A stretch of DNA of 64,000 nucleotides from Catajapyx aquilonaris (lineage: Eukaryota), in assembly GCA_000934665.2 (NCBI GenBank), contig KZ538153.1:1-64000 (forward strand), given 5' to 3'. Shown in pieces: positions 4,301-49,787 of this stretch. The notes under the pieces are model-generated. The model saw nothing but the letters and a program-made list of their open reading frames with translations, did not search any database and was not told the DNA's origin. The position numbers and the translations under genes are program-made. Each line of letters starts with the position of its first letter. Positions within the stretch are counted from its first letter, which is position 1.

Positions 4301-5754
4301 GGTTGAGGCCCTGATACTTGTCAACAAACTTTTTTTCGATGATGATAAAAAGTCTAAAAAGGGAGCAAGAGGATGCACTATATTGAGCGCCCCGGATCTG
4401 ACCTCACTCATATCTCGAAAATGGCTGCGAAGTGCGGGTTTTTACCTTCACCAGTGAATTATGTGCATGTGATTTTACCCACTGAGCGATTTTTGTCCAA
4501 ATCGGTTAGTCACACGTCACGGTCTTCCCTTGTGAGACCAATAAACAAAACTGGCCATCACGTATGGTTTACCCTGCGGCCTACGCGATGAAAAAATAAT
4601 ATAAATTGACACCTTTCATTTCCCTCCTCCCACGTAATCCACCCTTACACAGGAAGTTATCACGTAATTTTTATTTTAATGGCAAATGTGTCTTCACACC
4701 ATCGTATTGCAAGGGAGATTAAAATATTATCCCAATCAATCAATGTCATCCAGAGAAATAAAGTCTGGAATGACAACAACAGCAACAAAATGGCCGCGTA
4801 TGAATAGGGGTGTCACGTATCAGTACTATGTAAATGTACCAAAATGGCATAATAAACGTCGGAGAGGATGAAGGACACCTGGTGGCCCACCCCAAGTGGA
4901 ATGTCCCAGTAATAATATTGCATCACATTCACACCTAATTCCAACATTTTGCTTTCATTAAAACTGCATTTACGTATATTATCGTGAATATTTAATAAGC
5001 TCACATTTACCCATTTCAGAGAGAAGAAGCTGAAAAGAACATGGCGAATGGGATCCAGCCAGACATGGACCAAGGGTCGAACTTGCAGGGGAATTCTTGT
5101 CAAGGGACATTTAGTTCCAGGAATGTGTTGAAGAGTCAAAAGAAAATCAATTGCAAAGACAAGCCATTCAGTTGCCAAGTTTGCAATAGAAAGTTGAGAG
5201 ACTCGCATGGTCTGAAGAGACACTCGATGACCCACACGGGAGAGAAGCCATTCAGATGCCAGGTTTGCAAGAAAACCTTTACTCGTTCAGAACATTTGAA
5301 TTCACACATGAGAACTCACACAGGGGAGAAACCTTTCAGTTGCCAGGTTTGCAAGAAAACCTTTACTCGTTCAGAACATTTGAATTCACACATGAGAACT
5401 CACACAGGCGAGAAGCCATTCAGCTGCCAGGTTTGCAAGAAAGCCTTTACTCGTTCAGGAGATTTGAATGAACACATGAGAACTCACACAGGGGAGAAGC
5501 CATTCACCTGCCAGGTTTGCAAGAAAGCCTTTACTCATTCAGGACATTTGAATGAACACATGAGAACTCACACAGGGGAGAAGCCATTCTGCTGCCAGGT
5601 TTGCAAGACAAAATTTACTCGTTCAGGGCATTTGAATGAACACATGAGAACTCACACAGGGGAGAAGCCATTTAGTTGCAAGGTTTGCAGTAAAAGGTTT
5701 GCTCTCTCAAACAATTTGAAATGTCACGAGAGAACACACACAAAAGACAAGTGA
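1343..5754 (+). CDS. C2H2 zinc-finger protein (one N-terminal finger, acidic region, array of 7 Kruppel-type fingers); exons 1343-1735 and 5020-5754
   Basis: CPCCPDKVF..HSTTH in exon 1. The donor CAG|GTGAGA after 1735 and the acceptor tttcAG|AGA at 5019/5020 are both phase 0 and join in frame. Seven CxxC-x12-HxxxH fingers with TGEKPF linkers. The start codon is uncertain. Confidence 0.8.
3265..4085. mobile_element. Foldback/MITE-like element with about 150-bp terminal inverted repeats, in the zinc-finger gene intron
   Basis: 3265-3414 is the near-perfect reverse complement of 3936-4085, and both outer ends are TTAA. A second, inner inverted pair lies at 3415-3477 / 3692-3758. No ORF. Confidence 0.8.
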
Positions 5755-11120: not shown

Positions 11121-12529
11121 ATGAGATTGCTAACTTTAACATTGTTGGTAGTGGCAGGAGTCACGTGCTTTCCGGAGTTAAATTTCGAGCAGAAGAGATG
11201 GAACGAATTCAAGGTATTATGGACTTGTAATAATTACTCATGGTGCATTACTAATTGATTGCAATTTTAGGTAAAGTACAATAAGAAGTACGACTCTGCT
11301 GAAGAGGAACAACTGAGACGTGGCGTTTGGGCTGCGAATATAATGATGATTAACAAGCATAATGAGGAGGCGAATATGGGAAGGCAGAGCTACACCTTGG
11401 CAGAAAACATATTTGCAGACATGGTAAATTCGATATGAATATTGCAAAGTACGTGCAATATTTTATTTGAATAATATTTCAGACACACGACGAGTTTAGA
11501 GAGATGATGGGTCAGAAGCCGGTTCAACAATCAGTGACCAAACACACCCTCAATATGGCCGAAGATCTCCCTGATTCGGTACGTTTTGAAATATCTGACG
11601 AACTGCAAAATGTTTCATTTTGTTCCACTTACTCTTTGACTCATTCTTCCAACATTTAAAATGCAAAACTATAAGTCATACTATTATTCAAATTGGCATT
11701 AAAAATGAAAGGTGAGCTCAATTATTAAAATATTCTAATAGGTTAGTATTTCACGTGGAGAAAATGGCTTAAATAATATTGTAAATTTTGTGTGTGGATT
11801 GCAGGTGGACTGGCGCACAAAAGGAATAGTGAAGAAAGTAATGGACGAAGGTCAGCTAGTGTACGGCTGGTGCTTCTCAACCACGGGCACTATCGAAGGT
11901 CAGCACGCACTGGCCACAGGTCAACTGGTGCCTCTCAGCGAGATCAACCTGGCCGACTGCTGTGACTCATTCAACGTCTACCAGTGTATTTACGACATGG
12001 GAGGGGTTGACACAGAAGATGGATATCCTGACCCAGAGAAGGTGAGTGGCCCACTGCTGTGTGTAATTTCTATTTAAATTTATTTTTAAATTTCAGAACG
12101 GAACATGCAGATTCAATGAAAAAACTATTGGATCTACTATAACCGGATGGGAATCGTTGCCACAAGGAGATGAAGGACAGTTGCAAGCAGCTGTGGCCAA
12201 CATTGGACCAATTTCTGTTTATGTCGATGCCAGTCGATCATCCTTCCAGTTCTACAGGTGATATAATCGATCGATTAATTGTTTGTAATGATTGATGATT
12301 CTCTCACTATTATAGTGGAGGCGTGTACAATGAGCCGGAATGTTCCTCCGAAGATGTGGACTTGTCGATGCTGACCATCGGATACGGTGTGACCTCAGAC
12401 AATGTTCAATACTACATATTGAGAAATCACTGGGGACTCAATTGGGGCGAACAGGGTTACATGAGGATGATTCGCAACGATGGAAACAAATGCGGAATCG
12501 CTACTTTTGCAACATACGTCACTGTATAA
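11121..12529 (+). CDS. Cathepsin-L-like gene 1, non-peptidase homologue (6 exons)
   Basis: Signal peptide MRLLTLTLLVVAGVTC, I29 prodomain, VDWR, GYG, RNHWG..WGEQGYM. Catalytic motif reads MDEGQLVYGW instead of [10 protein letters not shown], and DVDLSM instead of LDHAV. Confidence 0.9.
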
Positions 12530-13469
12530 CTGCGAAAAGCCCAGAAAATAAAAGAATTGAATCGACTATTTTAAAAACATTGAGTTGTTTCATTAAAATG
12601 TCTTTTTTTGCCATTAGCCTATACGAGATGGTGACTATGTGGAAAAATAGCATAAGAATGATATACTAGGAAATTCACCACTGTCCACTGATAATAATTA
12701 ACCGAATTTGCAAAAAAAATACTATAGGCCTAGTGGAATTGCAATATTATGCAATATACATCTCTCTGTACACAATTCTGGCCTCATTTGCTAATCGTGC
12801 AGGGAACTCAACACACCTTTGGCACAACGTAATCATGTGGGGCAGACAATCCACACTCACAAATACCTGGATCAGTCAATAATAATATCTCATCATCATC
12901 CACCTCAAAAACCTAAACAAATATGCACATGCTGGATGACTTATATCATGAAGTGTATTGCTGATCGCATGACTGCCATTGGCGCAATCACTCTCTGTAC
13001 ATATGAGCTACCTACAGTTCATTACAAATAATGTAGCAGTAAATAATGACCAAAATTTTAATTATTTACATAATTATTTGTTGTGCCAATCAAATTAAGG
13101 ACAAGTTTCTGCAGGATGAAAATTATTGAAAGTCAAACATGTCATCGTAATGGTTGCTTGGGTAAACAATCCACTATTTCTCTCCTCCCGAATAATTGTT
13201 GTTGTGAACCATTCTGTAGATGAATGTGATAATAACACTTCAGTTTTGTAAACAATGGTACTCGACACACCAATTTTTTTTCAAAAGCCTCCAGGCTAAA
13301 AATAGAATCAGGTAAAAGTCGCATGAAACCGGTAGGACAGGTGAATAACCTGATATCCGAGTCCAATAGATCATATATATTTTTTTTGGATGAAAGAGAC
13401 TCAATATAAGGAGGTGTCTTACCAACAATCCATCGCACTTGTTCCTGTCCTCAAGGCACAACATCAACC

Positions 13470-15029
<1,560 letters not shown>

Positions 15030-16161
15030 ACGTTGTTAAATAATGCTCTTATTGTTAGTGTATAGAATTGCATTTTTTTAAACGGTCAGTGTTTACTTTA
15101 CTGTTTCATTACTTATATCACAAAGATTAAGACAATCACTGGTGGCCTGAATGTGATATGTAGGATCAAGATTCTGACCTTGATGATGGGCAAACAAGTG
15201 CTGCGATTGTAATTTGCCCAATTACAAGTGCTGCACTTACGACACTGCTTTTCTCTTGCGATAAACTGTCAGATATAACTCGTATGCAAAGATTACAAGT
15301 ACTAAAGGCTCCTTTTTTCAAGTGGATGACTTGCCAATGGGTTTTTCCCTATAGGTTGGAAAATAGTATATTTTGATAATTCGACTGCAAGATAGATTTT
15401 AGATAAGGATAACCAGGTGTACCCTCAGACATATATTTACAAGTGTACAAAATGTGTGTACAAATTTTATAATTAGCACAAATAAAGTTGGTCCCTTTTA
15501 TTTCTTAAATGAAGTTAATATTTCAAGCTTATTAATCCTCATTCCTCAACTATATAGGGAAGATATTGTTTCAGAAATTGATTTAAATTAATGGTAAGCC
15601 TGTCGCGCCAATAGGTATATAGAACATGCTACTGTAGCTTTCATAAAATCGGGTCTTAAATTGTTTGCAAATCAATTAAAATTAATTAAAAATTCATAGC
15701 CAGATAGCCATAGTTGCGCGCTCCTTCATAATAAACCAAACCAATTAATAAACAATGAAATTGTGTCTGATATATGAATAGCTATTATCAACAGCTAATT
15801 ATGTAATTATGCGTCCTCCAAGATTGTAAAAAGTATGAGCATTAATTTATTTACAAATCATACCGATTGTGTTACGTATCAAGTGAGCTGATCTCCGCGA
15901 TACGAACTACATTACAGCACTCACAGTATGTACCCAAGTGAAGTGTGACTGCTAATCTCCAATCTTCGGATTTAAAAAAAATAAAGAGATAAACAATCGA
16001 ATTGTCCACCCACAAATCCCCCCCCAGAGGAGTAAACAAAGTTGCACAATAAATGGTCACTTACGTAGCTTTCATTCGCCTATAAAAAGACCCTGGAGAC
16101 GTTCGCCTCGTTACCAGTCAATCGAAGTCGAACCTTTGCTTGTGACTGCACAGAGGCAACA

Positions 16162-17675
16162 ATGCGTCTTCTTATTTTGGCACTTCTTGTGGCCACGGCC
16201 GTCGCCACCACTCGCAGGCTCCGTGTTGGAGACCCAGCTCAGGACAGCAACTGGGAATTTTTCAAGGTATATAAATTTGCTCATTTTTTAAAAACATCTC
16301 CAAAATATTACGCGATAATTAATTAACAATATTTCTTTAATTTCAGAGCAAGTACAACAAGGGGTATGGAAATGACGTGAAGGAAGAGTCCATCCGCCGC
16401 CTGGTGTGGGAGAAGAACATGGCTTATGTGGACGAGCATAATGCTGAATATGCTGCTGGAAAGCATACTTTCTGGCTGGCTGAGAACGAATATGCTGACC
16501 TGGTGATTATCACGCTTTGACTTTTTTTTTGGAACCAAATGGTCATCACTTTTGTTATTGCTTGTGAACATGTCTGATTACTAATAAAAACTAATTATTC
16601 CAGTCCATCGAAGAGTTCCGTGTGATCATGAACGGTTATGTTGCTCCAACTATCAAGCCTAAGCGTGCTGTGTTCAACTCTACCGGAATCAAGGTTCCAG
16701 CATCGGTACGTACACACTTGTATACGCAAAAAAAATTGCACATTTTCGTCGGAAGTATGTAAAAAAAATTTTTCTGTATTGTTGTTGTAGGTTGACTGGA
16801 GGAACTCTGGTATTGTTACCCCAGTGAAGAACCAGGGACAGTGCGGTTCCTGCTGGTCTTTTGCCACCACTGGTGCTGCTGAGGGACAGCATGCTCTTGC
16901 AACCAGGCAGCTTGTGTCGCTCAGGTACGTGGACCGTCGAAAATTGTCCACTACATTTTGCTAATTAACATTAATTCATACAACAGTGAGCAGAACCTGG
17001 TCGACTGTGTTAGCAACTGCAACGGATGCGGTGGAGGATGGCCCGACTATGCCTTCCAGTACATCATCCAGAACAACGGTGTCGACACCGAGGATTCCTA
17101 TCCCTACCAGGCTGTGGTAAGTAAAAGACTATCTTGGCTAACCTTCGATCTCTGACCATGTTTTTTTGATCATATGAACTAATCGTAAACCTTCCATTGC
17201 AGCAAGGATACTGCCAGTTCAACCCCAGCTACGTTGGTGCCACCCTAAGCAACTTCCAGGACGTCGCCCAGGGTGACGAGAACGCTCTGATGCAGGCCTC
17301 CGGATCAGTCGGACCAATCGCAGTGGCCATCGATGCCAGCCACCAGTCCTTCCAGATGTACGGGTACGTATCGAACCAATATCGACGAATCACCATACTA
17401 TGAGTCCTATAATAGCGGTTTATAAGGGTTCGTTTTTTAATCAACATCATTTATTTTTCTTCTCTAGTGGTGGTATCTACTACGAGCCAGCCTGCTCCTC
17501 TCAGAACCTGGACCACGCTGTGCTGGTTGTTGGCTACGGAAGCCAGGGCAACGACTATTGGCTGGTCAAGAACTCCTGGGGCTCAAGCTGGGGTCTTGCA
17601 GGATACATCATGATGATCCGTAACTACAACAACCACTGCGGAATCGCCACCTCCGCTTCATTCCCCATCGTGTAA
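16162..17675 (+). CDS. CTSL: Cathepsin L-like cysteine protease 3 (7 exons, intact triad)
   Basis: TATAAAA at 16081; [36 protein letters not shown]. Confidence 0.95.
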
Positions 17676-18311
17676 AGTTTTTTGAAAAATGTGATTTTGA
17701 TGCAATAGTGACCTGACAACATCTGTAATAAAATTTGAGCTAATGAATCCCTCTGTGTAATATATAAATGTTTGCAATAAATCAGTTCCAAATATGAAGC
17801 TCGAATATTACTTCGATTTATTCAGTACCCACATCCTAAAGTGCGAATACAGCCTACGACACTTCCATACCATTTGCACAATATTACCCATCATCAAATG
17901 AGAAATCACAAGAAAATGTGCCAATCGATAAGATTTTTTTTTCAAGAAAGATATATTATTAACAATTGACCTCAACAATGGTGGGCATGACTTATTCCAT
18001 GATGACTCCTAGCAACAATACTTACATTTCGATTATGGCCTACCCTGCCCTGATTTTACCACAGGTGTTTACCTCGGTGCAAGTGCTGCATCCACACTTA
18101 TGAGGGCCATTAATTAATTAAACTATCATGCGAGGTCATCAAGCTTTGTTGGCAGATCATTCAAGTTCCGCCATTGCAACATCAGTCAGTCCATGAAAAC
18201 ATCTGCGTCCTATATTCTTCCCTCAGCAGGTGAGTTGATCATAGATGCATTGTTTAGTGCATTACTATTCAGTATTCACTGAGTGATACTTTCAGCTTGC
18301 GGGACCTTGGA

Positions 18312-19438
18312 ATGGGTGCTGCTTTATGCAAGCAAGACCAATCGAGAGAAAATGTCGATGGAAAGGACAATCCTACATTACCGGTACGCTGGTGTTTCAT
18401 AATAATACGGATAAACCAGCAGAGCATCAGTTATGTTGCAATGCCATTTAGTCTCCGAAAACATTCAATTAGCAATAAATTATAGACTAAACTACCTAAT
18501 ATGTATCGGACACAACCTACCACACTTCCATCTCCTAGCCAACTGCCTGATGCATCTTATAATAATAATGTATTACATTGAAGTTGCATTGGGGTACACA
18601 CGTTTAATTTTTAAAAAAACAATATAAACTTCTAGTTACCAGAGTTTGTCTGAATCATTATGTTTTTACGGCAATCACTGTCACCATTAATGACATGATG
18701 GCTTCTGCAGGAGAACCGGTTCACGTGGATACCATACTTTCCACCAGATTACCACCACGTACCCATGTTGTGCCCGGGGATTCCGGCACCACCATTCTCA
18801 TCCAAATGCGTCGTGGGTTCGGACCAGTTCAAAGACATTAGTCTCGCAGACTTCAAAGGCAAATTTCTGGTCCTAGTCTTCTACCAGTACGACTTGTAAG
18901 TAATTGACAATAATTTTACGTTTAATAGTTCCTGTTGTATCAATAAAAATTAGGGAAAAAATATCATAATGTGAGTGTTTTTTTAAACAAAATAAAGAAT
19001 TGAATTTTGTATCACTTAAATTCCAGCTTGCCCATATGTTCGTCCGATCTGGACGCGTTCACAAAGAACTTGAAGCGTTTTCGCGAGATCGGTTGCGAAG
19101 TAGTCTGCTGCTCGACAGACAGCCTGGACAACCACAACATGTGGACGTCGTTGACGTTCTCGTTCAGGACGCTTCCGATCATGGCGGACGCGAACGGACG
19201 CATCAGCAGGGACTACGGTGTGTACGACGAAGAGAGAGGTGTTGCCCAGACCAGCCTCTTCATCATCGACAAGGAACAGGTATTGCGGTACGTCAGCGTG
19301 TGCGACGAGAGAGTACAGAGGGACGTGGACAGCGTGTTGCGGTTGGTCAAGACGCTCAAGGAACTGTGCAAGGACATTGTTGGAGAAGGACAGGAGATTC
19401 TTCGTACACCGCCGTACATGGACTGCATCAATGGATAA
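18312..19438 (+). CDS. Divergent peroxiredoxin-like protein A (AhpC/Prx1 fold); exons 18312-18383, 18711-18895, 19027-19438
   Basis: APPF..FKDISLADFKGKFLVLVFYQYDF|LPICSSDL, IGCEVVCCSTDS, ISRDYGVYDEERG, LFIID, RDVDSVLRLV. It shares the phase-2 intron after DF with the canonical Prx. N-terminus MGAALCK. Confidence 0.85.
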
Positions 19439-19882
19439 AGCGCAGTACAATGCGAGACAAAACTAACTGGATGATGACATCGGCACAGGTATTGTTTATA
19501 AACTTGGCATGCATAAAGATTATTTACGATTTCTTTTTACAAAAGTGGTTTGTGTCTAACGGCCAATACGACTCTTTTAACGCCACTTTTAATTACCCGT
19601 ACCTACAAAGGCACGAAGCGTCGTACGCTGGAGTGATAAAATATGCGCACACGATGCATGTTTTCTGAATAAAAGCAGCTCTTGAAGTGTCGATTTCTAG
19701 CTATTGTTTCATCATTGTTGAAGGGAAATACTGTATGTTTGTATGGGGCTTGGTTCCATATATATCTTTGTGGTGGCATTTCCATGGAGGCCTGTTGACT
19801 ACTAATTGATAATCATCAAACTGTTGATCGAATTTTATATGTGTTTTCCATGTCAGCTTGCATGAACAATAAGCCTACCACG

Positions 19883-20873
19883 ATGGGTCTAAATTTGTGC
19901 AGAGAGCAGGACAGGAGGAAGTCCAGGAAGAACAGTGCGACGGAATTGGTTGTTGTACTGTACATTGAAGCATTACAAGTGAACTGTATGATCTTTGTCG
20001 TTACTATAATTCCAGGCACTGCATTCTTATCATGCACACTCACAGTCAGTGAGAAGCGTCATTCCTCGTGGTCTACAAATAGGTGTGACAGCACCCGATT
20101 TCAGATGCAGTGCTTTGGTGGACGGTCAGTTCAAAGAAGTTGGCCTCAAAGATTACGCTGGAAAGTCGTTGGTTCTTCTCTTCTACCCACAGGACTTGTG
20201 AGCACACTAATTCAATAGTATGCAACTCTTGGAAACAATAAATTAGCAAAAGTGTAACATTTTCCTGTCTGTAATATACCATAGAAAACCCTGGCCTCGG
20301 TCGCATTTTTCTATAGTGTCGGCTATACTGTTCAAACACAACAATTTCCACTTTCCAATTTTTGGGGAACATTAATGATATCTACAATATTCTAACAGCA
20401 ATACATCTCGACCTGAAGCTAGTCCTCAAGAAATTCGTAAGTTTTCCGAGAGGATATCAGAATTCCGTACGCTGTCCTGCGAAGTGGTGGCCTGCTCGAC
20501 TGACAGTGTGTACGTCCACTCGACGTGTGTTGCACTGCCCACGGATCAAGGAGGATTAGGTTTGAAGTTCAACATTCCTCTTCTGTCAGATAAGAACGGA
20601 GAGGTGAGCAGGTCCTACAGGGTGTACGAAAAGGATAGCGGAAGGTCCTTTAGAAGCGTGTTCCTCATCGACGAGAAGCAGGTCGTTCGACACAAGGCAG
20701 TGCACGACATGTTGCTTCCTCTGGACGTGGACGATACTCTCAGAGTCCTGATGGCCATACGTACCATCGACGAAAAGGAAGACAAAAGTACTGCCTGTCA
20801 CAAAAAAAAGTTTCGGCCAGACACGTCCGGGCTGGACAATATACGTTTGGCCGAAACTTTTTTTAGTAACTGA
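19883..20873 (+). CDS. Divergent peroxiredoxin-like protein B lacking the peroxidatic Cys; exons 19883-19948, 20016-20197, 20399-20873 (possible extra exon 20943-21193)
   Basis: [82 protein letters not shown]-terminus MGLNLCR; an in-frame upstream ATG exists at 19862. Confidence 0.85.
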
Positions 20874-23800
20874 TTCCTAAAATTTATTTAATTTATTTAT
20901 TGCAGTATATTTTTATAACTATCGAGCACCTCTCTGTTACAGGTTGTATTAGCAGCTTCTGGCAGTCAAGGTCCTCAAAGAAGGAGAGGAGGAAGACCAT
21001 GATACTCGAGATCGAGACGGACATGTCGCAATCGCAAATGGATTTGATACGTTCGCTGCAAGAAGCAGGAAATCCGCCCAAGGTCCGAGTCATAACGCCA
21101 GACAAAGAATCTCTGGACCTGTTCACAGAGGACATAAATTCGGACAACGATAATAAAGGACACGACACAAAGAGGAGGGCCAGCAGAATATAAAGAAACA
21201 CACCGTGTGAGGAATATTGTCAATTGAAAAAAAAATGACTCAATTAAATCAGATGATGCTCATTACCTATTAAGTAATATTGCGTGTAAAATTCTCCCGA
21301 GATAAAGCCAAACCATCATTTATAAGTGACTATATTATTCAAGTGCCCTCTCATGATTTTTTTGTGTCCCACTGGAATTGCACACACGCAATGCGGGACA
21401 GCAGTCACGATTCGCTGCCTGTCACTCAAAAGGCTCGTCATCCATTAAAAGGAGCGGTCACGTTATATGCGCTAATGATAATTTGACCACAACAATGTGA
21501 GCATTCAAAAATAATGTAATCAATGTAATATAATATTTAAAAATAATGTACCACAGGTAATCGTAATGGGGCAATAAATATGTGAATGATAAAATAACTG
21601 CCATTCACATTAAAAAACAATGAAGCGTCCAGTAATAAACAAGCCTATTTGTGTCAAAAAGCTTTACCTTTAAGCTGTTTGTGACAATAGGTCATTAGAG
21701 CCTTATCGTTTTACATGTAAGGAGATACGTACAGACATGAAGTTGACACTTCCATTTCGAACAACAAGAGTGTTTGAGCCTCAGGTTTCTAATATAATTA
21801 GCTTCTCACGTGATGCTCGTTATCATTATACTTAAATTCATGCTTTCGTAAAAATACGTCGTGAAATCGTTTTACACGCTGGACATTGTTTTGTTTGACG
21901 TCAATAAAGGGACGAAATAGCTAACCTTATACGAAACTTAAGTACTGTACAGTAGGCCTCTCCAGTACTACACAAAAAAAATGGCGCAATCGACTATTAT
22001 GCGGTACTTCATATTCCCTTTTTACTACTGTCCATTACTATGTGCACGCGTAATATTTTGCAAACAAAATAATGTTGCCTGCCTACTGACATATGTGCGC
22101 CATTATTAGGGCCATCACAATAAAATTAATGTAAAAGCTCTTCATATCCAATGCCATATACAAATCACCATCATTTGCACACGAATATCTGCGCTCAAAT
22201 TATGAATATTACCACTACTTTTATTTATAGCTCGGTCGTACCTTGTTGGAATTTTTCAAGTATTTCATGTCCACTATTTATGTGCGTATGTGAAGCTCCC
22301 GTTTTATAGGCCATTTTTTTCATCAAGCCCAACCCCATGTTTTTCGCTTTCCGTTTTGTCCCTCTTTTGTCTGCAACCCTAGGGTCTATCCAAACGGCCT
22401 TGTAAAATAACGGTGCCCAACATGGGGTGCGCGTCACCAAAAATATACGGTATACCCCCCAAATTGATTTCCGGCCATGAAAAAAAAAAGCAAGGTCGCC
22501 ACGTGCTCCACTGTTAAATATTATATGAGCTCACATGTGCCAGCTTGCGATTTATTGGCAATTAAAATTTGCGCACACCTTTTTGACTATACATGCTTGC
22601 CAAGAGTTCCCATGATTCCCTTTGTGTAGAGACGAGGGGGGGTAGGTGAGGCCAGCTGTCGACCAGAGACTGAAACGACGAGCAGCAGGCCTCAGTACCC
22701 CGACAGCCATTGAGGAGTGCAGCTGTGGGAAAAAAGAAGTTCAAGGTCTGGCCATTTTCATCCAAACTGTTTGGTCGATATTCTTATAGTCAAGGAGAAA
22801 CATACGCTCTTGGTATATAAAGTGCAGTCCAGGTAAACGCTTTGATAAGTGTGGATGTAGGTACAGTACAGTGCATTGTGTTGTGTAAATGGGTTGTGCT
22901 GGTGGTTGTCTGACTGTGGTACCGTACGAACATACCAACGTCAAATGTGCTCAGGATCCTTTGAACATGTCGGACACATTCACAGACCTTTTGATAGACA
23001 CAGTGTCGGCGTCACAAGAGGTGCGTTATCCGGTTCGTTAAAAAATATGGGGGGGTACATTTTATGTGAAATCGATGCACTTTATGTAGGCTATTGGCAC
23101 GGGTTATGCAAAAAAAGAAGAGGTGGATTATTATTGACTTCCTGTATGCGCCCTAGTGAATAACCCCCTCCTCTTTGTGGCCTTGCACACACGTAAAGGC
23201 ACAGCCAGCAATAATTAACCGTTGACCTTGCTATGATTTTCGTTACATACACCGCCGAATTCGCATGTTTTTATCCGTAATTTGCTACGACGTCAACAAA
23301 AAAAAATTGCAATGTTCATACTCAGTTTTTTTTAAATAAATTACATTATTTTGTCCCAAAAATTATTCTGCAATATGCGTCTTTTATGCTAACAACAATT
23401 AGTTTAAAAAAAGATGTGGAATTTTTCAGATGGGAAGGACCTTAAAATATTTTTGACCTGTGACCCAGAAAACCATATTGGAACCTTTTCATATGCAGAA
23501 CTCTCAATAGATGGCGCACCAGTCGTGGATTTATTTTTTGGCGGATATTTTTTGGCAACTATGCGGACGACGCGACGGATTTGAATCACTAATATGGAAC
23601 AACTATCAAATTTTTAATCCATAAAAATTCGTGTCACTCTTAACTCATGACCCTTTCGGTCTGTTTTGACCTCTGGGGACGCTTATTGTGCGCTATGTAA
23701 CCGTAAAATGACAGTGCCGCAACCTAACGAACGTTATTGTGGCGAGCGTCACGCACAGTGAGTTTGAATGACCAGTGCGCAGCCTCCTCGGCGCATCTAG

Positions 23801-23824: not shown

Positions 23825-24464
23825 CAGTGGGCGTGATTGCAATTAGTTCGTAATTTGGACACTAGAGGCGCGGACAAGTCAGCTCTATCGGGAGATTCCG
23901 GTACTAATTAGACACATTTTAAATATAAGGTGACATTTTTTGGGGGGCTATTAATTATTAAGTGGTGGTTAATTATGGGAGCACGGCTGTGTTCAATTGA
24001 AGAGCCTTGGCCACATACTTTGGGGCATGCTTTGGTTCAAGGAGATCGTGGCCAATTGCTTGATATACTCCAGAGAAGGTTTGAGGTCAGAAGAAAATAA
24101 GGATCAGCTTAATTGGCTAATTAATTATTATATTAAACTATGCTAGTTTTTTTTCTTCAATTAACTTGCAACCACATTGCAGCAATGTTGCAATGATCAA
24201 AATTACCAGTACCGTAATAATACGGTGCGGTTTAATGCGCAGAATAAAAACATGCGATGTGATGTAATCGAAGCCTCAAAAATAATTACGCAACAGAGGG
24301 AAGTTATCAGCCGGCCCAAAAATGTGTAGCGGATCGCTACTCGCAACTTATGTTGAATGCGATTAGTGTAGGTCGTACACTTCCTGGTAATGTGGGTAAT
24401 AAAATGTGATCGCAGGAAAATAACGCACTTTCTCTTCCGACAGATACCTACAACTCCAGCCAAG

Positions 24465-25805
24465 ATGAGTCTCCAGCCCTTGCTCCTGCCGCAGATGCCC
24501 GCGCCTCACTTCAAGACCATGGCGCTCGTTAACAGCGAATTCAAGGAGGTCTCGCTTAGCGACTACAAGGGGAAATACCTAGTCCTGTTTTTCTATCCGC
24601 TTGATTTGTAAGTATATTACGTACAATTAAATATTACAAGTGATCCGCTATTGAGAATGGTTAGCCTTGAACTGATTGGGTGTCGTTATCAGAACCGGAT
24701 GTCCCATGTTGACAATCCACTTGATATGCGGCCAATATACCGGATGCATTCAAAGCTTCTTTCCTGGCGTTACGTAACGGCTTAAAGGGAATGTTCACTG
24801 TTCATTGCATTCATTGTGACTGCGACTAGCGTCAATGAGCGCAACATCTTTTTCCCCAGCACGTTTGTGTGTCCGACCGAGATCATCGCCTTCTCCGACC
24901 GTGTCGAAGAGTTCCGAAATATCGGATGTGAGGTGGTGGCCTGCTCGACTGATAGCCATTTCAGTCATCTGGCCTGGTGCAACACCACACGAAAGAATGG
25001 CGGCCTGGGCCAGATGCAGATCCCGCTTCTGGCCGACAAGACCGGTCGGATCAGCAGGGCCTATGGGGTGTACCACGAGGAGGAAGGGATTGCTTTCCGC
25101 GGCCTGTTCATTATTGATCCCAAGCAGATCCTGAGGCAGATCACCATCAATGATCTACCAGTTGGAAGGGATATAGACGAGACCCTGCGACTGGTTCAGG
25201 CCTTCCAGTTCACCGACAAGCATGGGGAAGGTGAGCTTTACCGTGAAGTTGATTAATCTGCCTTGTACAGCCCCGTAACTTGTTAATACCGGTACGAGTC
25301 GACTTACACGTAACGCATCGTTAGTAGGCAAGATATTAAGCATAATTAAAGTAAATCAGTTAGGATGTTAACTAGATGCTTCACTGGAAATCATAATCTA
25401 ACTACTCGATTAAAGGAAAAGTCTAGCTGGACATGCTGAAACCATGAAACAAACAAAATGGAAAGTGATGTACGATTTTTGTCGGACAATGATCGGTACT
25501 TACCTCAATTTGGATGCGCCGTTAAATGATACCGTCCCAGCAACTAGCATTGAGTGCTAGTAAAACCTGAAATTAAAAAGCAGAGCTTGATATAAAATGA
25601 TGAAGTAACATACCGGTATGCAGCTCTACAATGAAAATGATGCGTGATTGTAACTTCAAGTAGGATTTTTTTAAGGACTCGTCTGGATGTGATAGTAATA
25701 GCGAAATTATATTTTCCAGTGTGCCCGGCTGGATGGAAGCCTGGAAAGAAGACGATAAAAGCAGATCCGAAGGAGAGCCAGGAATACTTCAAGACCATTG
25801 AGTAA
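24465..25805 (+). CDS. Prx1: Typical 2-Cys peroxiredoxin (Prx1/2, thioredoxin peroxidase); exons 24465-24607, 24860-25230, 25720-25805
   Basis: [46 protein letters not shown] and the C-terminal YF motif are all intact. Confidence 0.97.
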
Positions 25806-26844
25806 TGCCGAAGGGAACCAAAAAGCAGATTCGGATCATGGAAATCACAGTGTAATTTTGTCCTACCCCCCCCCCGTCGTTATATTTTTTTTGTTGTGTA
25901 GTCGTGTTACCCGGAGTCATATTGTCCCTTTTCGTACCATGATTTTGCCAGAATTTTGGCAGTTTGCATATCATTTAACTAAGAATCATGGAGTGAGTTG
26001 GGGTGAATCTTGCAACCAGAATCTCCTGCAAGTCATGTGTTGGAGACACGTCAGACAGGCATTTACTGTATCATCTCATGTGAAGCTGGTATTCTCAGAA
26101 GCATTACTGGATAGTATTACATTTGTTTCCAATAAAGTGAGATCTTGTCTTGAACCTTCTCCATTTGTGGTTATTAGCACATTATTTTTTTCCACATTCA
26201 AGCCTCAATAGCATTAAATTGATATTTTTTCTATCATAAAAGTACTAGATCTACCGACTAGGAAAATCAGTACACTTATCATGTGATTGGTACTTGCGTC
26301 ATATAAAACTTGAAACAATACATATTATCTCAGTTCTTGAATGATTAGGATGTTATCAATATCAAAAAGTTATATTTACCGTTTGAGATATTTAAAATTA
26401 CGCATTAACGCTTGTTATCCCTGTGCGTACAAGGGTAAGTCAACATGGGCATGACCTTTGTTATGTAATTACTGTAGAAAGTGTACACCAAGCTGCTTAT
26501 TAAGCATTTACTTTTGACTTAGTACAACATTGCGATATAATTATTGCAATTAATGTCCCAGTGCAAACTTTGGCCCATTTCAGTTAACATCACAATCTCC
26601 AAAAAACTGAATGTGACCCACTGTAATTACCCGACATCCATTGTCCTCGACCCATTTTGTCACTACCATTTCCAGAATTCCTTTGCGACAGACAATAACA
26701 GGTTGCAAAAATATATCGAACTGTTAGCGATCTCTTGATAAGATAAGCTGCAGCCTTAAGTTTTGGTCCAGAGTTTAGCAAAGCTGCATACATACCGTGG
26801 AAGGAGAAGGAAACCAACACATCCTGCCTTGATATAATATCATC

Positions 26845-28407
<1,563 letters not shown>

Positions 28408-31077: not shown

Positions 31078-31160
31078 GTCAGGCCAGTTTTAGGGACCTC
31101 ATCAGTTGAAGGGGCAGTAGATTCACGTTACTGTCGTTCAACCCATCAAGTCCCAAAAAA

Positions 31161-32684
31161 ATGCGTCTTTTTGTTCTTGCCCTTCTCGTGGCCTCGGTGA
31201 CCTGCGTGTCAGTCCGCCAGGCCAAGGTTGGCAGCGCAGTGTACGACGACGAATGGGAAACGTACAAGGTATATATTCTCTCAACAATAGGGTAATGTCC
31301 ATGTTACTAACACTAATCAATGCACAGATCAAGTATGAGAAGAAGTATGAGACTCTGGAGGATGAGATCAAGCGTCGTTTGATCTGGGAGGACAACATGG
31401 CTTACATCAACAAGCACAACCTGGAAGCCGCCCGTGGAGAGCACTCCTTCACTCTTGGTCTTGGCCCCTTCACTGATCTGGTCAGTATGCACTAATTTCA
31501 ACAAGTGATCATTGTTAATAACTCTGTTGTACTATTACAGACCAACCAGGAATTCCGTGCCCAGACATCATGCATCATTGATGCTCCCCTGCCTAAGCTC
31601 CCAGTCACCAAGAAGGTCTACAAGGCAACGGTTCCAGACAGCGTATGTATTGCACGTTTATTCATATTTTAAAACACAGAATAATTAGCAATGTTGTAAT
31701 AATATATTATCAGATCGACTGGAGGAGCAAGGGTGTCGTGTCCAGTGTGAAGAACCAGGCACAATGCGGATCATGCTGGGCTTTCTCCACCGTCGGATGC
31801 GTCGAGAGCAGGCAGTCCATCGAGACTGGACATTCTCCACTGGATCTCAGGTTAGGATCTCATAAGATCACAGAAAGATATCAGTCTAACTGTTCGCATT
31901 CTAGCCCACAGCAGCTTGTCGACTGTGACAGCAATGACAGCGGATGCAACGGAGGAAACCCATACACTGCCTTCCAGTACATGCAGGCTAATGGAGTCGA
32001 GCAGTGGAACGACTACTCATATACTGCAGCGGTAATAACAAAAACTGTGGCCTTCAAACACAATGAGTAAGGTAGCAGACCTGAAGCTGAAATTAGCCTC
32101 CAAGACAGGCGATCCCCTCTGCATCACCACGAGTCGTGATGAGGCTAATTTCAGCTTCAGGTCTGCTACGTTACTCATTTCCGTACTGGCGTGATGGAAG
32201 TGTCGTATAGGCTGTATGACCCCAATTTTTTTTTCTACACTTGCTTCTTTCTCTTTACAGCAAGGAAGCTGCAGGTATGACGCCTCAAAGGTTGCCGCAC
32301 ATGTTTCCCAAGTCGGTTTCGTCCAGGGTGATGAGGTCGGCATGAAGAACGAGATTGGAGCCAATGGACCAATCGCCATCACTCTGAACGCCGCATCTGC
32401 CAACTTCCAGCATTACTCGTAAGAACTTTGAAGCATGATGACTATGGAATGTTGGCTAATTTTCGTGTAATTGCAGTGGCGGAGTGTTCGACGATCCCAG
32501 CTGCCCAACTGATATCGACCATGGTGTGATTGCCGTGGGTTATGGCAACAGTGGTGGAAAGGACATGTGGATCGTCAAGAACTCCTGGGGAGCCGGCTGG
32601 GGATTGCAAGGATACTTCATGTTGGAACGTGGTGTCAACAGGTGCGGTTGCAACACTCTGTCCACCTGGAGCCACGCTAACTAA
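31161..32684 (+). CDS. Cathepsin L-like cysteine protease 5 (7 exons, intact triad)
   Basis: [36 protein letters not shown]. Confidence 0.93.
32062..32179. mobile_element. 118-bp MITE-like hairpin with 39-bp inverted arms in intron 5 of cathepsin 5
   Basis: aatgagtaaggtagcagacctgaagctgaaattagcctc (32062-32100) versus gaggctaatttcagcttcaggtctgctacgttactcatt (32141-32179), one mismatch. Confidence 0.75.
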
Positions 32685-36346: not shown

Positions 36347-37786
36347 ATGCGTCTTTTGATTCTGGCTCTTCTTGTGGCGTCGGTGACTTGCGTCTCCGTT
36401 CGCCAGGCCAAGGTTGGAAACTCAGTCTACGACGACGAATGGGAAACGTACAAGGTATGGTCTCATCAACTCTAATAAGGTAATGCCCACATGTTTGTAT
36501 AACCATTGCGAATCATGCTCAGATCAAGTATGAGAAGAAGTATGAGACTCTGGCGGAAGAGATGAAGCGTCGTCTGATCTGGGAGGACAACATGGCACTG
36601 ATCAACAAGCACAACCTGGAAGCAGCCCGTGGAGAACACTCCTTCACCATGGGTCAAGGGCCATTCAGTGACCTGGTCAGTACTTCAAACCATATATCGC
36701 TTTAACATGTCTAACTACCACACTTTCACTTTGCAGACCAACGAGGAATTCCGTGCCCAGACCACATGTATCGATGGAGCAAATATGCCAAAGCTCGCCA
36801 CTACCCCACAGACTTACAATGTCCGGGCTCCAGACAGCGTAAGTCAATATATTTAACCTCAATTCGGATTGATGGTTCATAAGCATAAATCTATACATTG
36901 CAGATTGACTGGAGGCAGAAGGGTGTTGTGAGCAGCGTTAAGGACCAGAAACAATGCGGATCTTGCTGGGCCTTCGCAACAGCCGCAACCATCGAGAGCC
37001 GTCAAGCCATCGACCAAAACCAAGGACCTTATGACCTCAGGTTGGTCACTAATAACTTGCTTGGTTTTAATCAATTCGCTAATAATTTACGGGACACATT
37101 TCAGCCCTCAGCAGATTGTTGATTGCGACACAAACAACTACGGCTGCGGAGGAGGATGGCCATACATATCCATGACCAAGTACGTCTCTGGAAGTGGCGT
37201 ACAGACCTGGAACAGTTACCCATACGCCGGTGTGGTGAGTGTCTTGCTAACCCAGCAAACTAGGCAGTACTTGACATTTCAAGTAATTTCCAGCAACAAA
37301 CCTGCACCTACTCGGCCTCCCAAGTTGTGGCCCACATTTCCAACGTCGGAATCATCCAAGGAGACGAAAACCAGATGAAGGAAGAGATCGGAAACAACGG
37401 ACCCATCGCCATTCTCCTGAACGCTGGATCTCCATCCTTCCAGCAATACACGTAAGAGCACCAATTAACACATAAGTAACAAGCAGTAATTTTGAGCAGT
37501 TATGAACAGCTTTCAGGAAGATCGCCGTTTCTTGCATGATGACATGATGCTAATTACGCAATCCTAATTATGCAGGTCCGGAGTGTATGACGATGCTAGT
37601 TGCTCTACTTCACCCAACCATGCTGTTACTGCTGTGGGTTACGGAAACGAAGATGGAAAGGACTACTGGCTGGTCAAGAACTCCTGGGGAGATACCTGGG
37701 GAGCACAGGGTTACTTCAAGATTGCTCGTGGTGTCAACAGGTGTGGTGTCAACAGCCAGTGCGCCTACTGCAACGGTAGCAATTAA
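36347..37786 (+). CDS. Cathepsin L-like cysteine protease 7 (7 exons, intact triad)
   Basis: [43 protein letters not shown] at 36269. Confidence 0.93.
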
Positions 37787-40795: not shown

Positions 40796-43334
40796 ATGGA
40801 CCCCGAGATGATCTTCGCCCAGAAGCTGGCCGGAAACGACCAGCGGCTGAGGGACCGGGCCTTGAAGAAGCTCAGGAGATGGCTCCTCTCTAGGGCCAAC
40901 CACGGAAACGGTGATATAATTAATTGCCCCCTAATTAATAATTAAATTCAAATTAATTAAAACACAAAAACGAAAACAATCGTGTGTACATTGCATGGAC
41001 TCACCCACTTGTTTTGTTCGTCCATTTCATACCCATTGTGTACCACATTTAATCCATTTTTAATCCATTTTTGTGCCCATTTATTGCATGTTTTGTACCC
41101 ATTTCATGCCCGTTTGCAGGCTTCACGGAGACGGACCTGCTGCGCGTGTGGAAGGGTCTGTTTTACTGCATGTGGATGTCGGATAAGCCGCTGATTCAGG
41201 AGGAGTTGGCGGAAACCATCTCGGGATTGGTGCACAGTTTTAAAGGGCACGACTCGCAGGGGCTGTGTTTCATCAAGTGCTTCTTCCTCACGATGGGCCG
41301 GGAGTGGACCGGGATCGACCGGTTCAGACTGGAAAAGTTCATGATGGTAAGGCGCGACCGTTGTGTCGTTGAACGGATTGTAACGTGCAGTTCATTTTCA
41401 GCTGGTACGGCGGTTTGTACGTCAAAGCTTTATGTACGCTTCCAACGAATCCTGGCGGCCCGAACTGTGCTCGGAGCTTTCATCGCTGTTCTCCACGACC
41501 ATAATTAATCCAACATGGGAGACCAGGCAGGGCACGTCGCTTCTTGGTCTGCAGTTTCACTTCGCCGACGTCTTCATGGAGGAGCTGGCCAAAGTCGGAG
41601 GTGGCGACCTGACCCACCAGCAGATTTGGGTCTTCGTAGAACCATTTGCGACCCAAATTGCACTAGGGCAGGATCCGCGACTGACAGATCATGTCGAAGA
41701 GAGAATATTCAAGCATCTGATGCGCCAGAGCGATTCTGGCATCGACTACGAGGGACAGTTCGAAGATGGCCATAAAGGGAAGGTAACGGACATGGAGAAG
41801 GTCACGGAGGAGGACGAGGATGAGCTGATTGTTGGGAACGAGCCGTTGGATCCACGAGCAGGGAATGTTGATGTTACGCTGGACCAGTTGGAGGTGAGCC
41901 TCTTCTCAAATAAATTGAACGCATCACAGCAATGACATTGTAATGATTACAGGTTGATTATGCTGATCTGGCCAGCCGACTGTTGGACCGTGTGGACAAC
42001 GTCGCTCCCAGAAACCGAAAGCAGTTGTTCCGTCTGATCCAACAGTAAGTTAACTGCCGCATTGTATTTTCCTGCTAACTAACAATTTGTCTGTTATCAG
42101 ATATCGTGACCTGTCCGGCGGAATATATCCGCTGGCTGTACGAGTCCCAGCCGTTCCGTCAAAAGGAAGTACGAGACAAATGTACGACAAGGCCATAGAG
42201 CGCGGAGTGAATTTCGAGGTGGAGTGGAAGAAGACGTTGGCCCAGGAAAAGGAAGGGATAATGCCAAGCGAGGAGGAAATACTAGAGCGTGAGAGGCAGG
42301 AAAAGGAAGCGTTTAAGGCTGGAAAGAAGCTGGGGAAGAAGCAGCGGAGGAAGAGGAGAATGAAAGCGCGGAAGAAGAGCAGCTTCCAGGTAAAGGATGT
42401 GGAAGAACCAGTCCAGCCGAAGAAGCCGAAGTTGGATGCTGGACCGAAGAAGAGGAAGTTGGGGAAAGAGGCTGAACCGAAGAAGAAGAAATTGGTGCAA
42501 GACGCTGGACTGAAGAAGAAAAGGAAGCACGTTCAGAATGGGTTCGTTGTTGACGATATTGAAGCTCATTCTGCGGCGAAGAAGACTGATAACGGATTTG
42601 TTGTTGACGATGTTGAAGCTCATCCTGCGGCGACGATGACTGCGAATGGATTTGTTGTTGAAGACTCGTGTGCAGGACCCACGACTGAGACTGTTACCAC
42701 AATGCAAAATGGGTTTATCGTCGAGGATATGACGAATGGCACCCCAAAGCAACACCCTCAGATGAATCTTCTTAACAATTCGGCGAAGAAAAGCAAGCCA
42801 AGCTCACCGAAACAAGACGAATTTGCACGCTTCAGCAAAGCAGAGTCGCCATCCGCACAGTTTTTCCGGAAAGCCAAGAGTCATTCGGAAGCTAACGGAA
42901 CTGAAACCGAGATTGTGATCAAACCTCGGAAGAAGAAGTGGGCGGAAAGCACTCCGCAAGTTTCAAAAGCTGTGAAGGTAAGAGCCGTATCATTTTTGAG
43001 TGGTCCAAACACTTGTTATGATCCGTGTGACATTCCAGTCTGAGCTGGAGAAGAAACTACGACATTCTGCGCCGGCCAGAATGAAGAAGGTCAACTTTGT
43101 GCTCCACAAAAACACGTCTCATGGTGAGTAATCGCAATCTACGTGAACATCGCCACGATTTAATCAATCTGTCTCTTTTCCGCAGAACATCGTGATTACC
43201 CGAGCTCCATTCGCAACAGTCCATCCATTCCATACGATGCGTCGAAAAGGCCACCGCAAAGTGTGCTCAAGTCCGCTCCGACGTTTTATGCGACGTTGAA
43301 CAACCGGCCGAAAGCAGCGGACTTTTTTTTTTAG
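40796..43334 (+). CDS. RRP1: Ribosomal RNA processing protein 1 homologue (RRP1/Nop52 family, RRP1B-like C-terminus), multi-exon
   Basis: FAQKLAGND..RDRALKKLRRWL, LLRVWKGLFYCMWMSDKPLIQEELA, REWTGIDRFRLEKFMM, lysine-rich region, KKVNF (RVxF-type) and terminal RPKAADFFF*. Confidence 0.93.
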
Positions 43335-43943: not shown

Positions 43944-45251
43944 ATGCGAATATTAGTCTTGGTTCTGTTTGTCGGCTTGTCTGAAGCAAAAGTAACATCG
44001 GCAAACTCCGACATTGACTGGCTCAAATACAAGGTAAATCACACTTCGAAATTTTTTTAAAACTACTGTACGTTTATTAATTGATCTGTCAGATCGAGTA
44101 TGAGAAGATGTACGAGACTCTGGCGGAAGAAAGGAAGCGTCGTTTGATCTGGGAGGACAACATGGCTTTGATCAACAAGCACAACCTGGAAGCCACCCGT
44201 GGACAGCACTCGTACACATTAGGTCAAGGGCCATTCACTGACCTGGTCAGTATTGAAACCATCTCATCTTAACATGTCTCATTACCACTCCTTATTGGCA
44301 GACCAACGAAGAATTTCAGGTCAAGATCAGTTGCGTTCATCGATTCAACCTGACTGAATCTGCAACTAGCTATAACACCGAAGCTCCATTAAGCGTATGT
44401 ATCTGTTTGCATGAATTATTATTATGCTAATTAACATGTAATTACAGATTGACTGGAGGCGGTTTGGTGTTGTGACCAGGGTTAAAAACCAAGAGTCATG
44501 CGGATCATGCTGGGCGTTTGCCACAACCGCGACCGTTGAAAGTCGCCAAGCAATACGCACTAGGCGATATCCGCAAGATCTTAGGTACTCATTAACACTT
44601 CATTATGCACAGAAAAATACATGTATGTGATTTCCAGTCCCCAGCAGATAGTCGACTGCGACGCAGGCGACTACGGATGCCACGGAGGATATCCATATAA
44701 AGCTTTGCAATATTTGGAGCGCTACGGTGCGATGAACTGGAACAGCTATCTTTACGCTAATGCGGTTTGTATTAATTGTACAGCAGCCGCTAAGTCTGTT
44801 TTAATCCTTAATTATTTACAGCAACAAGCCTGCCAGTATCGGCGGTCTAAGGTAGTGGCTCGAGTCTCTAACGTCAGATGGATCCAAGGGAATGAAGAAG
44901 AGATGCGGTTAGAGGTCGGAAACTATGGACCTGTTGCTGTCAGCATACACGCGGGAACTTCTTCATTCCAGCATTACAGGTGACTAATTAATATGCAATT
45001 AAATGAGTCATTATCATAAATGTCTGTGCCTCTGTTTTTTCAGAAGTGGCGTGTACGACAACAGGAGGTGCCCGACTGATACGAATCATGCTGTGACCAT
45101 AGTTGGTTATGGAGTCGAGGGCGGAAGGGACTTTTGGCTGATCAAGAACAGTTGGGGAACATACTGGGGCGACAGAGGCTACATGAAGATTGAACGTAAC
45201 AGAAACATTTGCGGTATAGCAACACAAGCAGCCTTCAGCAACGCTTGGTAG
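43944..45251 (+). CDS. Cathepsin L-like cysteine protease 9 (7 exons, intact triad, Arg-rich mature domain)
   Basis: [36 protein letters not shown]. Confidence 0.93.
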
Positions 45252-45587
45252 AAAACACTGCTAAAATTATACGCGGCGGAACTTGAAGTGGTTCGTATCT
45301 CAATAAATCTGGAACAAGTACTGACCTCCATTATTTATATAGTGACCCCCTTTTTTATATAATATTATCAGTATTTGTAACCACTTCACTTTACACTGAT
45401 TCGATAATGGAAGTGTCCTGAAACCACTTGACTCTTGCCCTCGCAGGTGCTGCTCTCACGAAGCTCATAAAGTCAGAAGGATGATTACATAAAGCACGAT
45501 TATCTCTAGATAACATTTAAGTACTACCCACAATAGTATATAACATGCAGAGCTAATAGGTGCAGTACCGTACTGGTTGCTAGAACG

Positions 45588-49164: not shown

Positions 49165-49787
49165 CTCATTTTTGTAACTTTACAATAAAAAAATGATACG
49201 TTTGTTACTGTACCTCCAAAAATGCTTTCATTTTTCGTACTACTTATACAATAAGCATACCGTACTTCAAATGCATGCCCATCATTGATTTATACACCTG
49301 GCAATGAGAGCTTGACACGACCCTGATCTTTCTCTATTGACTCCAAACGGTGCATGACAAACAGAAAAATGGACAAGGCTGCTATGCAACAAAAAAAATT
49401 GATCGTGAAGCCTATCGTCCCTTATAGTCTCTCATTCGAAGACTCATCGAAAGGGTGAGCACAAGCCAAGTAAGTAATATTCCGATTGTGTAAAAATATT
49501 AGAAAAAATATTTGCACATTTCAAATCCGACCAAAGTTTGTCAACATGTAATTTCATAATTGACCGTAACATAGCAAATTGTTTCCTAAGATAAAATCAA
49601 TGATAAAATTGCATTAGTATAATTATTGTACATTATTATATCCGTGAGTATGAGACATAAACAGTTGTCACCATGAGTAGCTTAATAGAATTGATTAAAA
49701 TCTTTTTTATGATAAGCACGCACACACTTTGCCTAATTTATGTCAATTTCGCGTGCAGATTTTTTTTTCTTCAGCAAGAGACAAACC

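Follow-up and report, generated by a model that had tools for sequence, protein, structure and literature searches.

Typical 2-Cys peroxiredoxins (Prx) are viewed as soluble proteins, and their presence at membranes is ascribed to transient binding or to local inactivation. Dual-acylation N-termini of the SH4 type (Fyn, AKAP18-alpha) begin with Met-Gly, carry Cys within the first seven residues and continue with Lys or Arg, and the plant GPX-like proteins GPXL4 and GPXL5 are anchored through a myristate. AtGPXL4 and AtGPXL5 are reported to be anchored at the plasma membrane (PMC12108209), and the plant thioredoxin Trx-h2 to be tethered to membranes through a myristoylated Gly2 (PMC8389195). 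For mammalian PRDX4 and PRDX4t, the choice of the first exon is reported to set the compartment of the Prx1-type enzyme (PMC7577974). Here we describe two divergent Prx1-fold genes, A and B, which stand in tandem beside a canonical 2-Cys Prx gene, C, in a 64,000-nt stretch of the Catajapyx aquilonaris genome (assembly GCA_000934665.2, contig KZ538153.1, positions 1 to 64,000; hereafter the window). The codon-level evidence shows that A and B are selectively maintained Prx1-fold genes and not decayed copies. The reading tentatively favoured here is that they are lineage-specific, fast-evolving tandem duplicates with degenerate active sites, in which short first exons opening with Met-Gly (MG exons) would supply lipid anchors, and which would act as non-catalytic or slow-thiol partners at the membrane.

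The window is eukaryotic, with GT..AG introns of 62–1611 nt confirmed via spliced RNA contigs of sequencing run X5, and its overall GC content is 41%. Run X5 is taken as RNA because it yields spliced contigs over cathepsin L and over C; 11 introns were confirmed in this way, the short ones measuring 62–104 nt (minimum 62 nt), and GTAC-type donors are used by 4 of the 11. A tandem cathepsin L array hosts the three Prx1/AhpC-type genes, all of them on the + strand, and their parts are as follows.

18312–18383, 18711–18895 and 19027–19438, + strand: gene A, 222 codons
18230–18295, + strand: candidate intron in the 5' untranslated region of A, 66 nt (CAG/gtgagt ... tttcag/CTTGC), read from the sequence
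18312–18383, + strand: A exon 1, a candidate read from the sequence, 24 codons, opens Met-Gly-Ala-Ala-Leu-Cys-Lys and ends at the phase-0 donor CCG/gtacgc
18711–18895, + strand: A exon 2, linker and N-terminal strands of the Prx fold, ends with FYQYD(F) at the conserved phase-2 intron
19027–19438, + strand: A exon 3, LPICSS ... AQTS ... stop codon at 19436–19438
19857–19954, + strand: B exon 1, a candidate read from the sequence, its acceptor (...gtcag) ending at 19856
20016–20197, + strand: B exon 2, with no in-frame Met and with the frame closed 6 nt upstream of the acceptor
20399–20787, + strand: B exon 3, with Ser at the peroxidatic position and FRS and GGLG kept, ends at the phase-1 donor AAA/gtactg
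20943–21193, + strand: B exon 4, new with respect to the original prediction, follows a 155-nt intron that ends gttacag directly before 20943
22716–22832 (start approximate), + strand: non-coding first exon of C, joined to 24444 in X5 RNA contigs
24444–24607 (ATG at 24465), 24860–25230 and 25720–25805, + strand: canonical 2-Cys Prx gene C, all three introns being GT..AG RNA joints

The membership of A and B in the Prx fold is clear. Exon 3 matches the Pfam family AhpC-TSA (PF00578) at 4.2e-17 in A and at 4.1e-16 in B, the exon-2 pieces match it at 2.6e-4 (A, where this exon belongs to repeat family D2) and 1.5e-5 (B), and in a sequence search of PDB chains the closest solved relatives of A and B are typical 2-Cys Prx (2.5e-22 and 6.8e-27). 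A and B are each 45% identical to C, 34% identical to each other and about 43–48% identical to animal Prx1 proteins; both carry N-terminal extensions of about 48–49 residues, and B additionally has a charged tail of about 80 residues. Catalytic residues were read from alignments to solved Prx chains and to C, with PxxxTxxC as the familiar active-site motif; C itself carries PxxxTxxC, Arg, GGLG, VCP and YF. At the active site of A, FYQYDFLPICSS, the Cys at the peroxidatic position is kept, Pro is replaced by Gln and Thr by Leu (QxxxLxxC), the catalytic Arg of AFRG has become Thr (AQTS), GGLG is deleted and the second Arg (VGR) is kept. In B, Ser stands opposite the peroxidatic Cys (SPQEI versus CPTEI) with a 4-residue insertion before it, the motif Pro, the first Arg (FRS) and GGLG are kept, and the second Arg has become Leu (LPLDVD versus PVGRDID). 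Judged by what marks a functional typical 2-Cys Prx, i.e., the PxxxTxxC motif and both Arg, A and B each fall short, while both have the AhpC-TSA fold. The full canonical signature was found in 160 of 270 aligned database proteins, and the signature of A or of B in none of the 270. We infer that neither protein can be a fast peroxidase; since Thr and Arg are lost in A, no activation of its Cys as a peroxidatic Cys is expected.

The canonical resolving Cys stands in the C-terminal arm (VCP). ELCKD of A pairs with the resolving motif EVCPA only across a gap. In B, the donor after 20787 (gtactg) coincides in the alignment with the HGE/V intron of C and joins in frame to exon 4, which opens x-Cys like the last exons of C and of a further Prx1-like gene, D, at the edge of the window, and which contains AGNPPKVRVITPDKESLDLF, matching the canonical tail of C (101 of 2000 shuffles reach the score). 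This x-Cys adjoins the conserved intron, and the local alignment that scores best against the canonical tail (AGNPP...) would put Gln in the resolving-Cys column. Exon 4 goes on into a charged C-terminal tail with KRRAS, and an ATTAAA signal (21243–21248) follows 50 nt past the stop. Because the conserved-column phase-1 donor joins in frame to exon 4, the stretch STACH...FFSN is probably intron read-through that lies outside the B protein. The read-through C-terminus was also tried as a homologue of the canonical tail and was rejected at chance level (1012 of 2000 shuffles reach the score).

These results bear on several claims of the original prediction. It had described tandem Prx1-fold paralogs beside a canonical 2-Cys Prx, which is corroborated by the Pfam matches, the shared introns and the RNA confirmation of C, and its account of A, as keeping the peroxidatic Cys and lacking the motif Pro and Thr, the Arg and GGLG, holds in the alignments to PDB chains and to C. 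Its account of B stands as regards Ser at the peroxidatic position and the retention of Arg and GGLG; the Cys of STACH, which it had proposed near the resolving position, is probably intronic. The idea of complementary losses and of an A/B heterodimer is not supported, since that Cys is probably not in the protein, although exon 4 does open x-Cys, and the Cys of A is without Thr and Arg. A complex prediction for A exon 3 with B exon 3, made with single exons and with an uncertain partner fold, gave scores of 0.19 and 0.25, where the mark is 0.34, and speaks neither for nor against the pairing.

How A and B arose can be read from their introns. A phase-2 intron within the Phe codon of FYPxDF is common to A, B and C, and a phase-1 intron is common to B, C and D; since the position of the phase-2 intron is shared, A, B and C arose by duplication at the DNA level. 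Differences at codon positions 1, 2 and 3 amount to.497,.322 and.590 between A and C,.477,.276 and.693 between B and C, and.542,.382 and.618 between A and B, i.e., in every pair the order is second < first < third. The original prediction had named a ratio of nonsynonymous to synonymous change near 1 as evidence against itself, and what is seen is a proportion of nonsynonymous differences of 0.38–0.47, below a (saturated) proportion of synonymous differences of 0.72–0.86. GC content at third positions is 0.68 in A and 0.57 in B, as compared with 0.50–0.70 in other coding sequence of the window and with a GC content of 0.22–0.42 in introns and spacers. In spite of saturated synonymous sites, frames and splice sites are intact in both genes over 3–4 exons, and when the coding sequence of C was evolved neutrally in simulation at 30–70% substitution per site, it stayed stop-free in 0.44% to 0.02% of trials (5000 trials per level). 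Because of the intact frames, the codon-position gradient and the coding-like third-position GC, A and B are taken to have been maintained as coding sequence. In a quick tree they sit on very long, unplaced branches (1.88 for A and 1.57 for B; the median is 0.58 and C has 0.21).

The first exons are the part on which the idea of a lipid anchor depends. Upstream of A, the cag/cttgc acceptor can be explained as ordinary cis-splicing, without recourse to trans-splicing, because a strong donor lies 66 nt upstream (between 18229 and 18230); the candidate intron of 66 nt falls inside the range of RNA-confirmed short introns, and the X5 contigs over C and over cathepsin L start in genomic sequence, an added leader not being seen. 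An AATAAA signal stands 3' of A at 19668–19673. A fourth exon of A at 19489–19671 was tried and rejected, as it has low GC and no usable phase-0 donor. As a separate observation, DNA runs X2 and X3 contain another haplotype that differs at 18922–19015, inside intron 2 of A, by 9 substitutions and 2 indels over about 95 nt; among the variant sites listed in DNA runs for 18100–21300, all fall within this intron and none in the flanking exons.

Exon 2 of B has no Met and its frame is closed on the 5' side, therefore B needs an upstream coding exon for its start. The reading frame demands an intron before 20016 with a length of 1 modulo 3, and candidate donors lie after 19948 (67-nt intron), 19954 (61 nt), 19960 (55 nt) and 19978 (37 nt); the last was set aside, the shortest RNA-confirmed intron being 62 nt. 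Most likely exon 1 ends at 19954 with the donor GTT/gtactg, which is preferred because the distance from ATG to donor is then 72 nt, as in A (donor gtacgc). In-frame ATGs of this exon are found at 19851 (just 5' of the acceptor), 19862 and 19883, the latter opening Met-Gly-Leu-Asn-Leu-Cys-Arg. The extra MG first exons of the original prediction are present as ATG-GGT open reading frames (ORFs) behind a shared tcag/CTTGC acceptor in both genes, and the claim is weakened by the in-frame ATGs upstream in B.

The pattern common to the two openings, ATGGGNNNNNNNYTNTGY or Met-Gly-x-x-(Leu/Phe)-Cys, was scanned on both strands of the window. Exactly three matches were found where 0.79 is expected, and 2 of 100 shuffles reach three. 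They lie at 18312 (A), 19883 (B) and 23975, all on the + strand and 399, 133 and 469 nt, respectively, upstream of Prx exon-2 homologues. The third match lies within intron 1 of C, and its donor is in frame with 24444; once A and B have supplied the motif, a match within this 1.6-kb intron has a probability of about 0.01, by arithmetic from the window expectation. Two candidate alternative first exons of C can be proposed in this intron.

23975–24085, + strand: opens Met-Gly-Ala-Arg-Leu-Cys-Ser, the start of a 41-codon ORF, with the phase-0 donor GAG/gtcaga
22889–23020, + strand: opens Met-Gly-Cys-Ala-Gly-Gly-Cys, with the phase-0 donor GAG/gtgcgt in frame with 24444

No splice junction for the 23975 exon is seen in the X5 RNA contigs, in which the non-coding first exon of C is joined (22829>24441, cut +3, depth 152) and both internal introns of C, whose coding part (24465–24607, 24860–25230 and 25720–25805) comprises 199 codons, are GT..AG joints too. 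A different donor for the 23975 exon, after 24078 (gtttga), was discarded as out of frame. Over 22852–23016, within the region of the second candidate, there is an X5 RNA contig of 165 nt at depth 4.7, with no splice junction seen in it, and a TATATAAA box is located upstream of this ORF at 22814–22821. With a looser definition, 13 ORFs of at least 22 codons with Met-Gly and a Cys at residues 3–7 occur in the window, 4 of them between 22422 and 23975. Two of these four, at 22422 and 23047 on the + strand, are situated before intron 1 of C or within it, and no good in-frame donor was found for them.

The three copies of the motif use synonymous codons that differ (GGT/GGT/GGA, TTA/TTG/CTG and TGC/TGC/TGT), and the phase-0 donors of all three MG exons fit phase-0 acceptors. 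Between the exon-1 peptides of A and B, 20 of 2000 shuffles reach the alignment score; only the opening aligns and the remainder has diverged beyond recognition. Selection on the first six residues as an N-terminal signal would be expected to leave just this, an opening that is kept with synonymous codons beside a diverged rest. From Met1 to the start of the fold at PAPxF there are 48 residues in A, 49 in B and 55 with the 23975 exon of C. An origin of the first exons of A and B from the resolving-Cys exons of upstream copies was considered and rejected, as 1257 of 2000 (A5-C4) and 1560 of 2000 (B5-C4) shuffles reach the scores. N-myristoyltransferase requires Gly2, with a small uncharged residue at position 6 and no Pro at 7, and a nearby Cys serves S-acylation. 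Position 6 is Cys in all three openings and position 7 is Lys (A), Arg (B) or Ser (23975), so that all three agree with these rules for positions 6 and 7 and for the nearby Cys, and the MG openings fit N-myristoylation plus S-acylation. The recurrence supports a conserved N-terminal motif of acylation type, above chance rather than conclusively. The acylation proposal of the original prediction thus gains from the in-frame recurrence in intron 1 of C and from the synonymous codons, and stays unproven in view of the upstream ATGs in B.

Searches for expression and for homologues returned little. RNA of run X5 gives no cover over 17906–22316, the region of A and B, which speaks neither for nor against expression, and no RNA run matched 18100–21300 in the run search. 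Of the 4 candidates in a word search with A exon 3, a single one was a match, namely an ordinary Prx with 39% identity, and a word search with B exon 3 gave none among 21. HMMER with A exon 3 against 1.84 billion representatives returned 1483 matches at E ≤ 1e-3, none at E ≤ 1e-30, with a best identity of 48%, and the matches inspected are mostly ordinary or sporadically degenerate Prx. In a metagenome scan 14 of 196 candidate stretches were confirmed, all distant (27–46% identity), and the ESM Atlas held generic AhpC/TSA clusters only. Protein P0135 joins B in the quick tree with a Shimodaira–Hasegawa-like approximate likelihood-ratio support of 83, flagged as long branches meeting; it was rejected as a B orthologue, being 47% identical to C versus 41% to B.

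Several observations weigh against lipid-anchored A and B, and some of them speak directly for the alternative that both are real pseudo-Prx of the soluble cytosol, A starting at the Met of exon 2 and B at ATG 19851 or 19862, which we regard as rather unlikely. The two upstream ATGs of B are in frame and would bury the Gly if present in the mRNA and used, the in-frame internal Met of A exon 2 (MLCPG) aligns with the region where the canonical protein starts, the exon-1 donor of B is weak and ambiguous, and the MG exons, as well as A and B themselves, have no transcript support in the RNA searched. Besides, the definition of the motif preceded the discovery of the third MG exon, A and B show no DNA similarity to each other in their 5' regions (local score 18, shuffle mean 17.95), and the acylation rules applied are general ones, not a computed prediction. 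The failure of word searches, HMMER and the metagenome scan to find A or B orthologues counts on the same side and says little, because the best match of C itself is only 86% identical (an annelid record), from which it follows that the species and its close kin are missing from the protein library. A soluble pair would leave unexplained, however, why Met-Gly-x-x-Leu-Cys recurs three times with synonymous codon differences and why the distance from ATG to donor is equal, 72 nt, in A and B. Moreover, the upstream ATGs of B stand in a poor context, with T at −3; at the MG ATGs, position −3 is a purine (A in the case of B) and position +4 is G.

May A and B instead be a single transcription unit that encodes a two-domain pseudo-Prx, with the donor after 19403 (gtacac) spliced to 19857, so that only the MG of A could be N-terminal? 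The join would be in frame, and its 453-nt intron compares with one of 489 nt at the corresponding position of C. Only a short gap separates A from B, the frame is open past the 19857 acceptor, and the exon there begins with x-Cys in phase 1, as do the final exons of B, C and D. B exon 1 also shares with B exon 4 a stretch of 24 nt at 83% identity, similarly offset and in an identical frame (family D5). Yet A has its own stop 33 nt past this donor and its AATAAA upstream of the 19857 acceptor, G is missing from the donor at positions −1 and +5, B exon 1 resembles the final exons of B, C and D only at shuffle level (1480, 1560 and 666 of 2000 reach the score), and there would be no reason for the conservation of Met-Gly-x-x-Leu-Cys at an internal position, which makes the fusion improbable. 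We give a similarly low probability to the view that A and B are silent relics, i.e., young pseudogenes with MG motifs by chance. The very long branches and the absence of orthologues from the searches made would suit it, but it is opposed by frames and splice sites that stayed intact while synonymous sites became saturated, by the codon-position gradient and coding-like third-position GC, by the at most 0.44% of neutral simulations that remained stop-free, and by the motif recurrence, which speaks against chance.

The reading of A and B as anchored pseudo-Prx can be put as a series of steps. Both would have arisen from the neighbouring typical 2-Cys Prx by tandem duplication within this lineage and would be evolving rapidly. 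Fold, parental intron positions and an open frame are kept in both under purifying selection; A no longer has the Pro, Thr and Arg of the catalytic tetrad, and B has lost the peroxidatic Cys and the second Arg. Each would be translated from a short 5' exon that opens Met-Gly-x-x-Leu-Cys, as the conservation between paralogues suggests; removal of Met would expose Gly for N-myristoylation, with Cys placed for S-acylation, and the Prx body would be tethered via a linker of about 50 residues to the cytosolic face of a membrane. The last step is the weakest: at the membrane, A and B may partner the active enzyme, or one another, without catalysis or as slow thiols, in the role of scaffold, holdase or relay. 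That an in-frame candidate alternative first exon of C opens in the same way suggests an anchor exon older than the duplications. A broader version, which is unlikely, holds that an ancestral anchor exon served the whole cluster, with C having a minor tethered isoform made from alternative first exons, and with A and B, which carry linkers and phosphorylatable tails, being anchored subunits of degenerate catalysis; the three would make up a membrane Prx module that shapes local peroxide signalling, an organisation not described so far.

The remaining features of the window are the following.

63450–63998, − strand: gene D, the 3' part of a fourth divergent Prx1-like gene, its 5' part lying beyond the window
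11700–17700, 26800–28000, 31100–32100, 36900–37400, 44500–46700 and 49600–50200, + strand: tandem array of cathepsin L genes (Peptidase_C1 / I29) around the Prx cluster
61172–63340, + strand: cytochrome P450 exons (Pfam)
41053–41932, + strand: exons of a Nop52 gene (Pfam)
4999–5751, + strand: exons of a C2H2 zinc-finger gene (Pfam)

Gene D reads INDMAVRRS...LRLVMAYQDTDLNGP ahead of the conserved phase-1 intron (63913–63851, 63 nt), after which x-Cys follows; its tail of about 130 residues is rich in Ser, Lys and Asp, with RRSS and RRTS sites, and AATAAA stands past the stop. Within the cathepsin array, the copy at 16162–17675 is highly expressed in run X5, and two paralogous − strand ORFs, at 39196 and 37223, open Met-Gly-Asn-Cys-Ser-Arg-Ser-Val and could belong, as first exons, to a further family whose start is of acylation type. 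DNA contigs of runs X1–X3 share short conserved stretches with B and C (20478–20506; up to 24898) and then pass into unlike sequence, which points to at least one further canonical-type Prx gene elsewhere in the genome. Rfam gave no match within the 64-kb window.

If the anchored reading is true, an encoded lipid anchor combined with catalytically dead Prx1 paralogues would offer a direct route to localised sensing or buffering of peroxide, and would be a clear addition to the short list of thiol peroxidase pseudo-enzymes. If the MG exons are unused, an ordinary pair of fast-evolving, lineage-specific pseudo-Prx genes remains. No acylated or membrane-anchored Prx1-type protein and no Prx pseudo-enzyme family was found in the full-text literature, a search from which subscription journals are largely outside, and within that scope it agrees with the earlier statement that no acylated Prx1-type subfamily has been described; the phrase 'lacks the peroxidatic cysteine' appears in a nematode paper (PMC6617597).

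Against the typical 2-Cys Prx (human PRDX1-4, tryparedoxin peroxidases, yeast Tsa1), A and B belong to the same fold and family and have the intron positions of the adjacent C, but A is without the active-site Pro, Thr, Arg and GGLG, B is without the peroxidatic Cys and the second Arg, and both carry extensions. Scattered Prx1-like proteins without the peroxidatic Cys (P0146 of a plant bug, P0135, P0142, P0065 and P0014) have likewise kept the fold; they are not orthologues of A or B. Plant Trx-h2, GPXL4 and GPXL5 are membrane-tethered thiol redox proteins, as is proposed here, but they come from other families (thioredoxin and GPX-like) and are catalytically competent. To SH4-type N-termini the likeness of A and B is limited to the motif, with no further homology, and acylation is here putative. 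Like PRDX4, C has more than one possible beginning, namely an RNA-confirmed non-coding first exon and the candidate coding first exons at 23975 and 22889; unlike PRDX4, where exon 1 is a signal peptide, the candidate exons of C have Met-Gly...Cys openings that would fit lipid anchoring on the cytosolic side.

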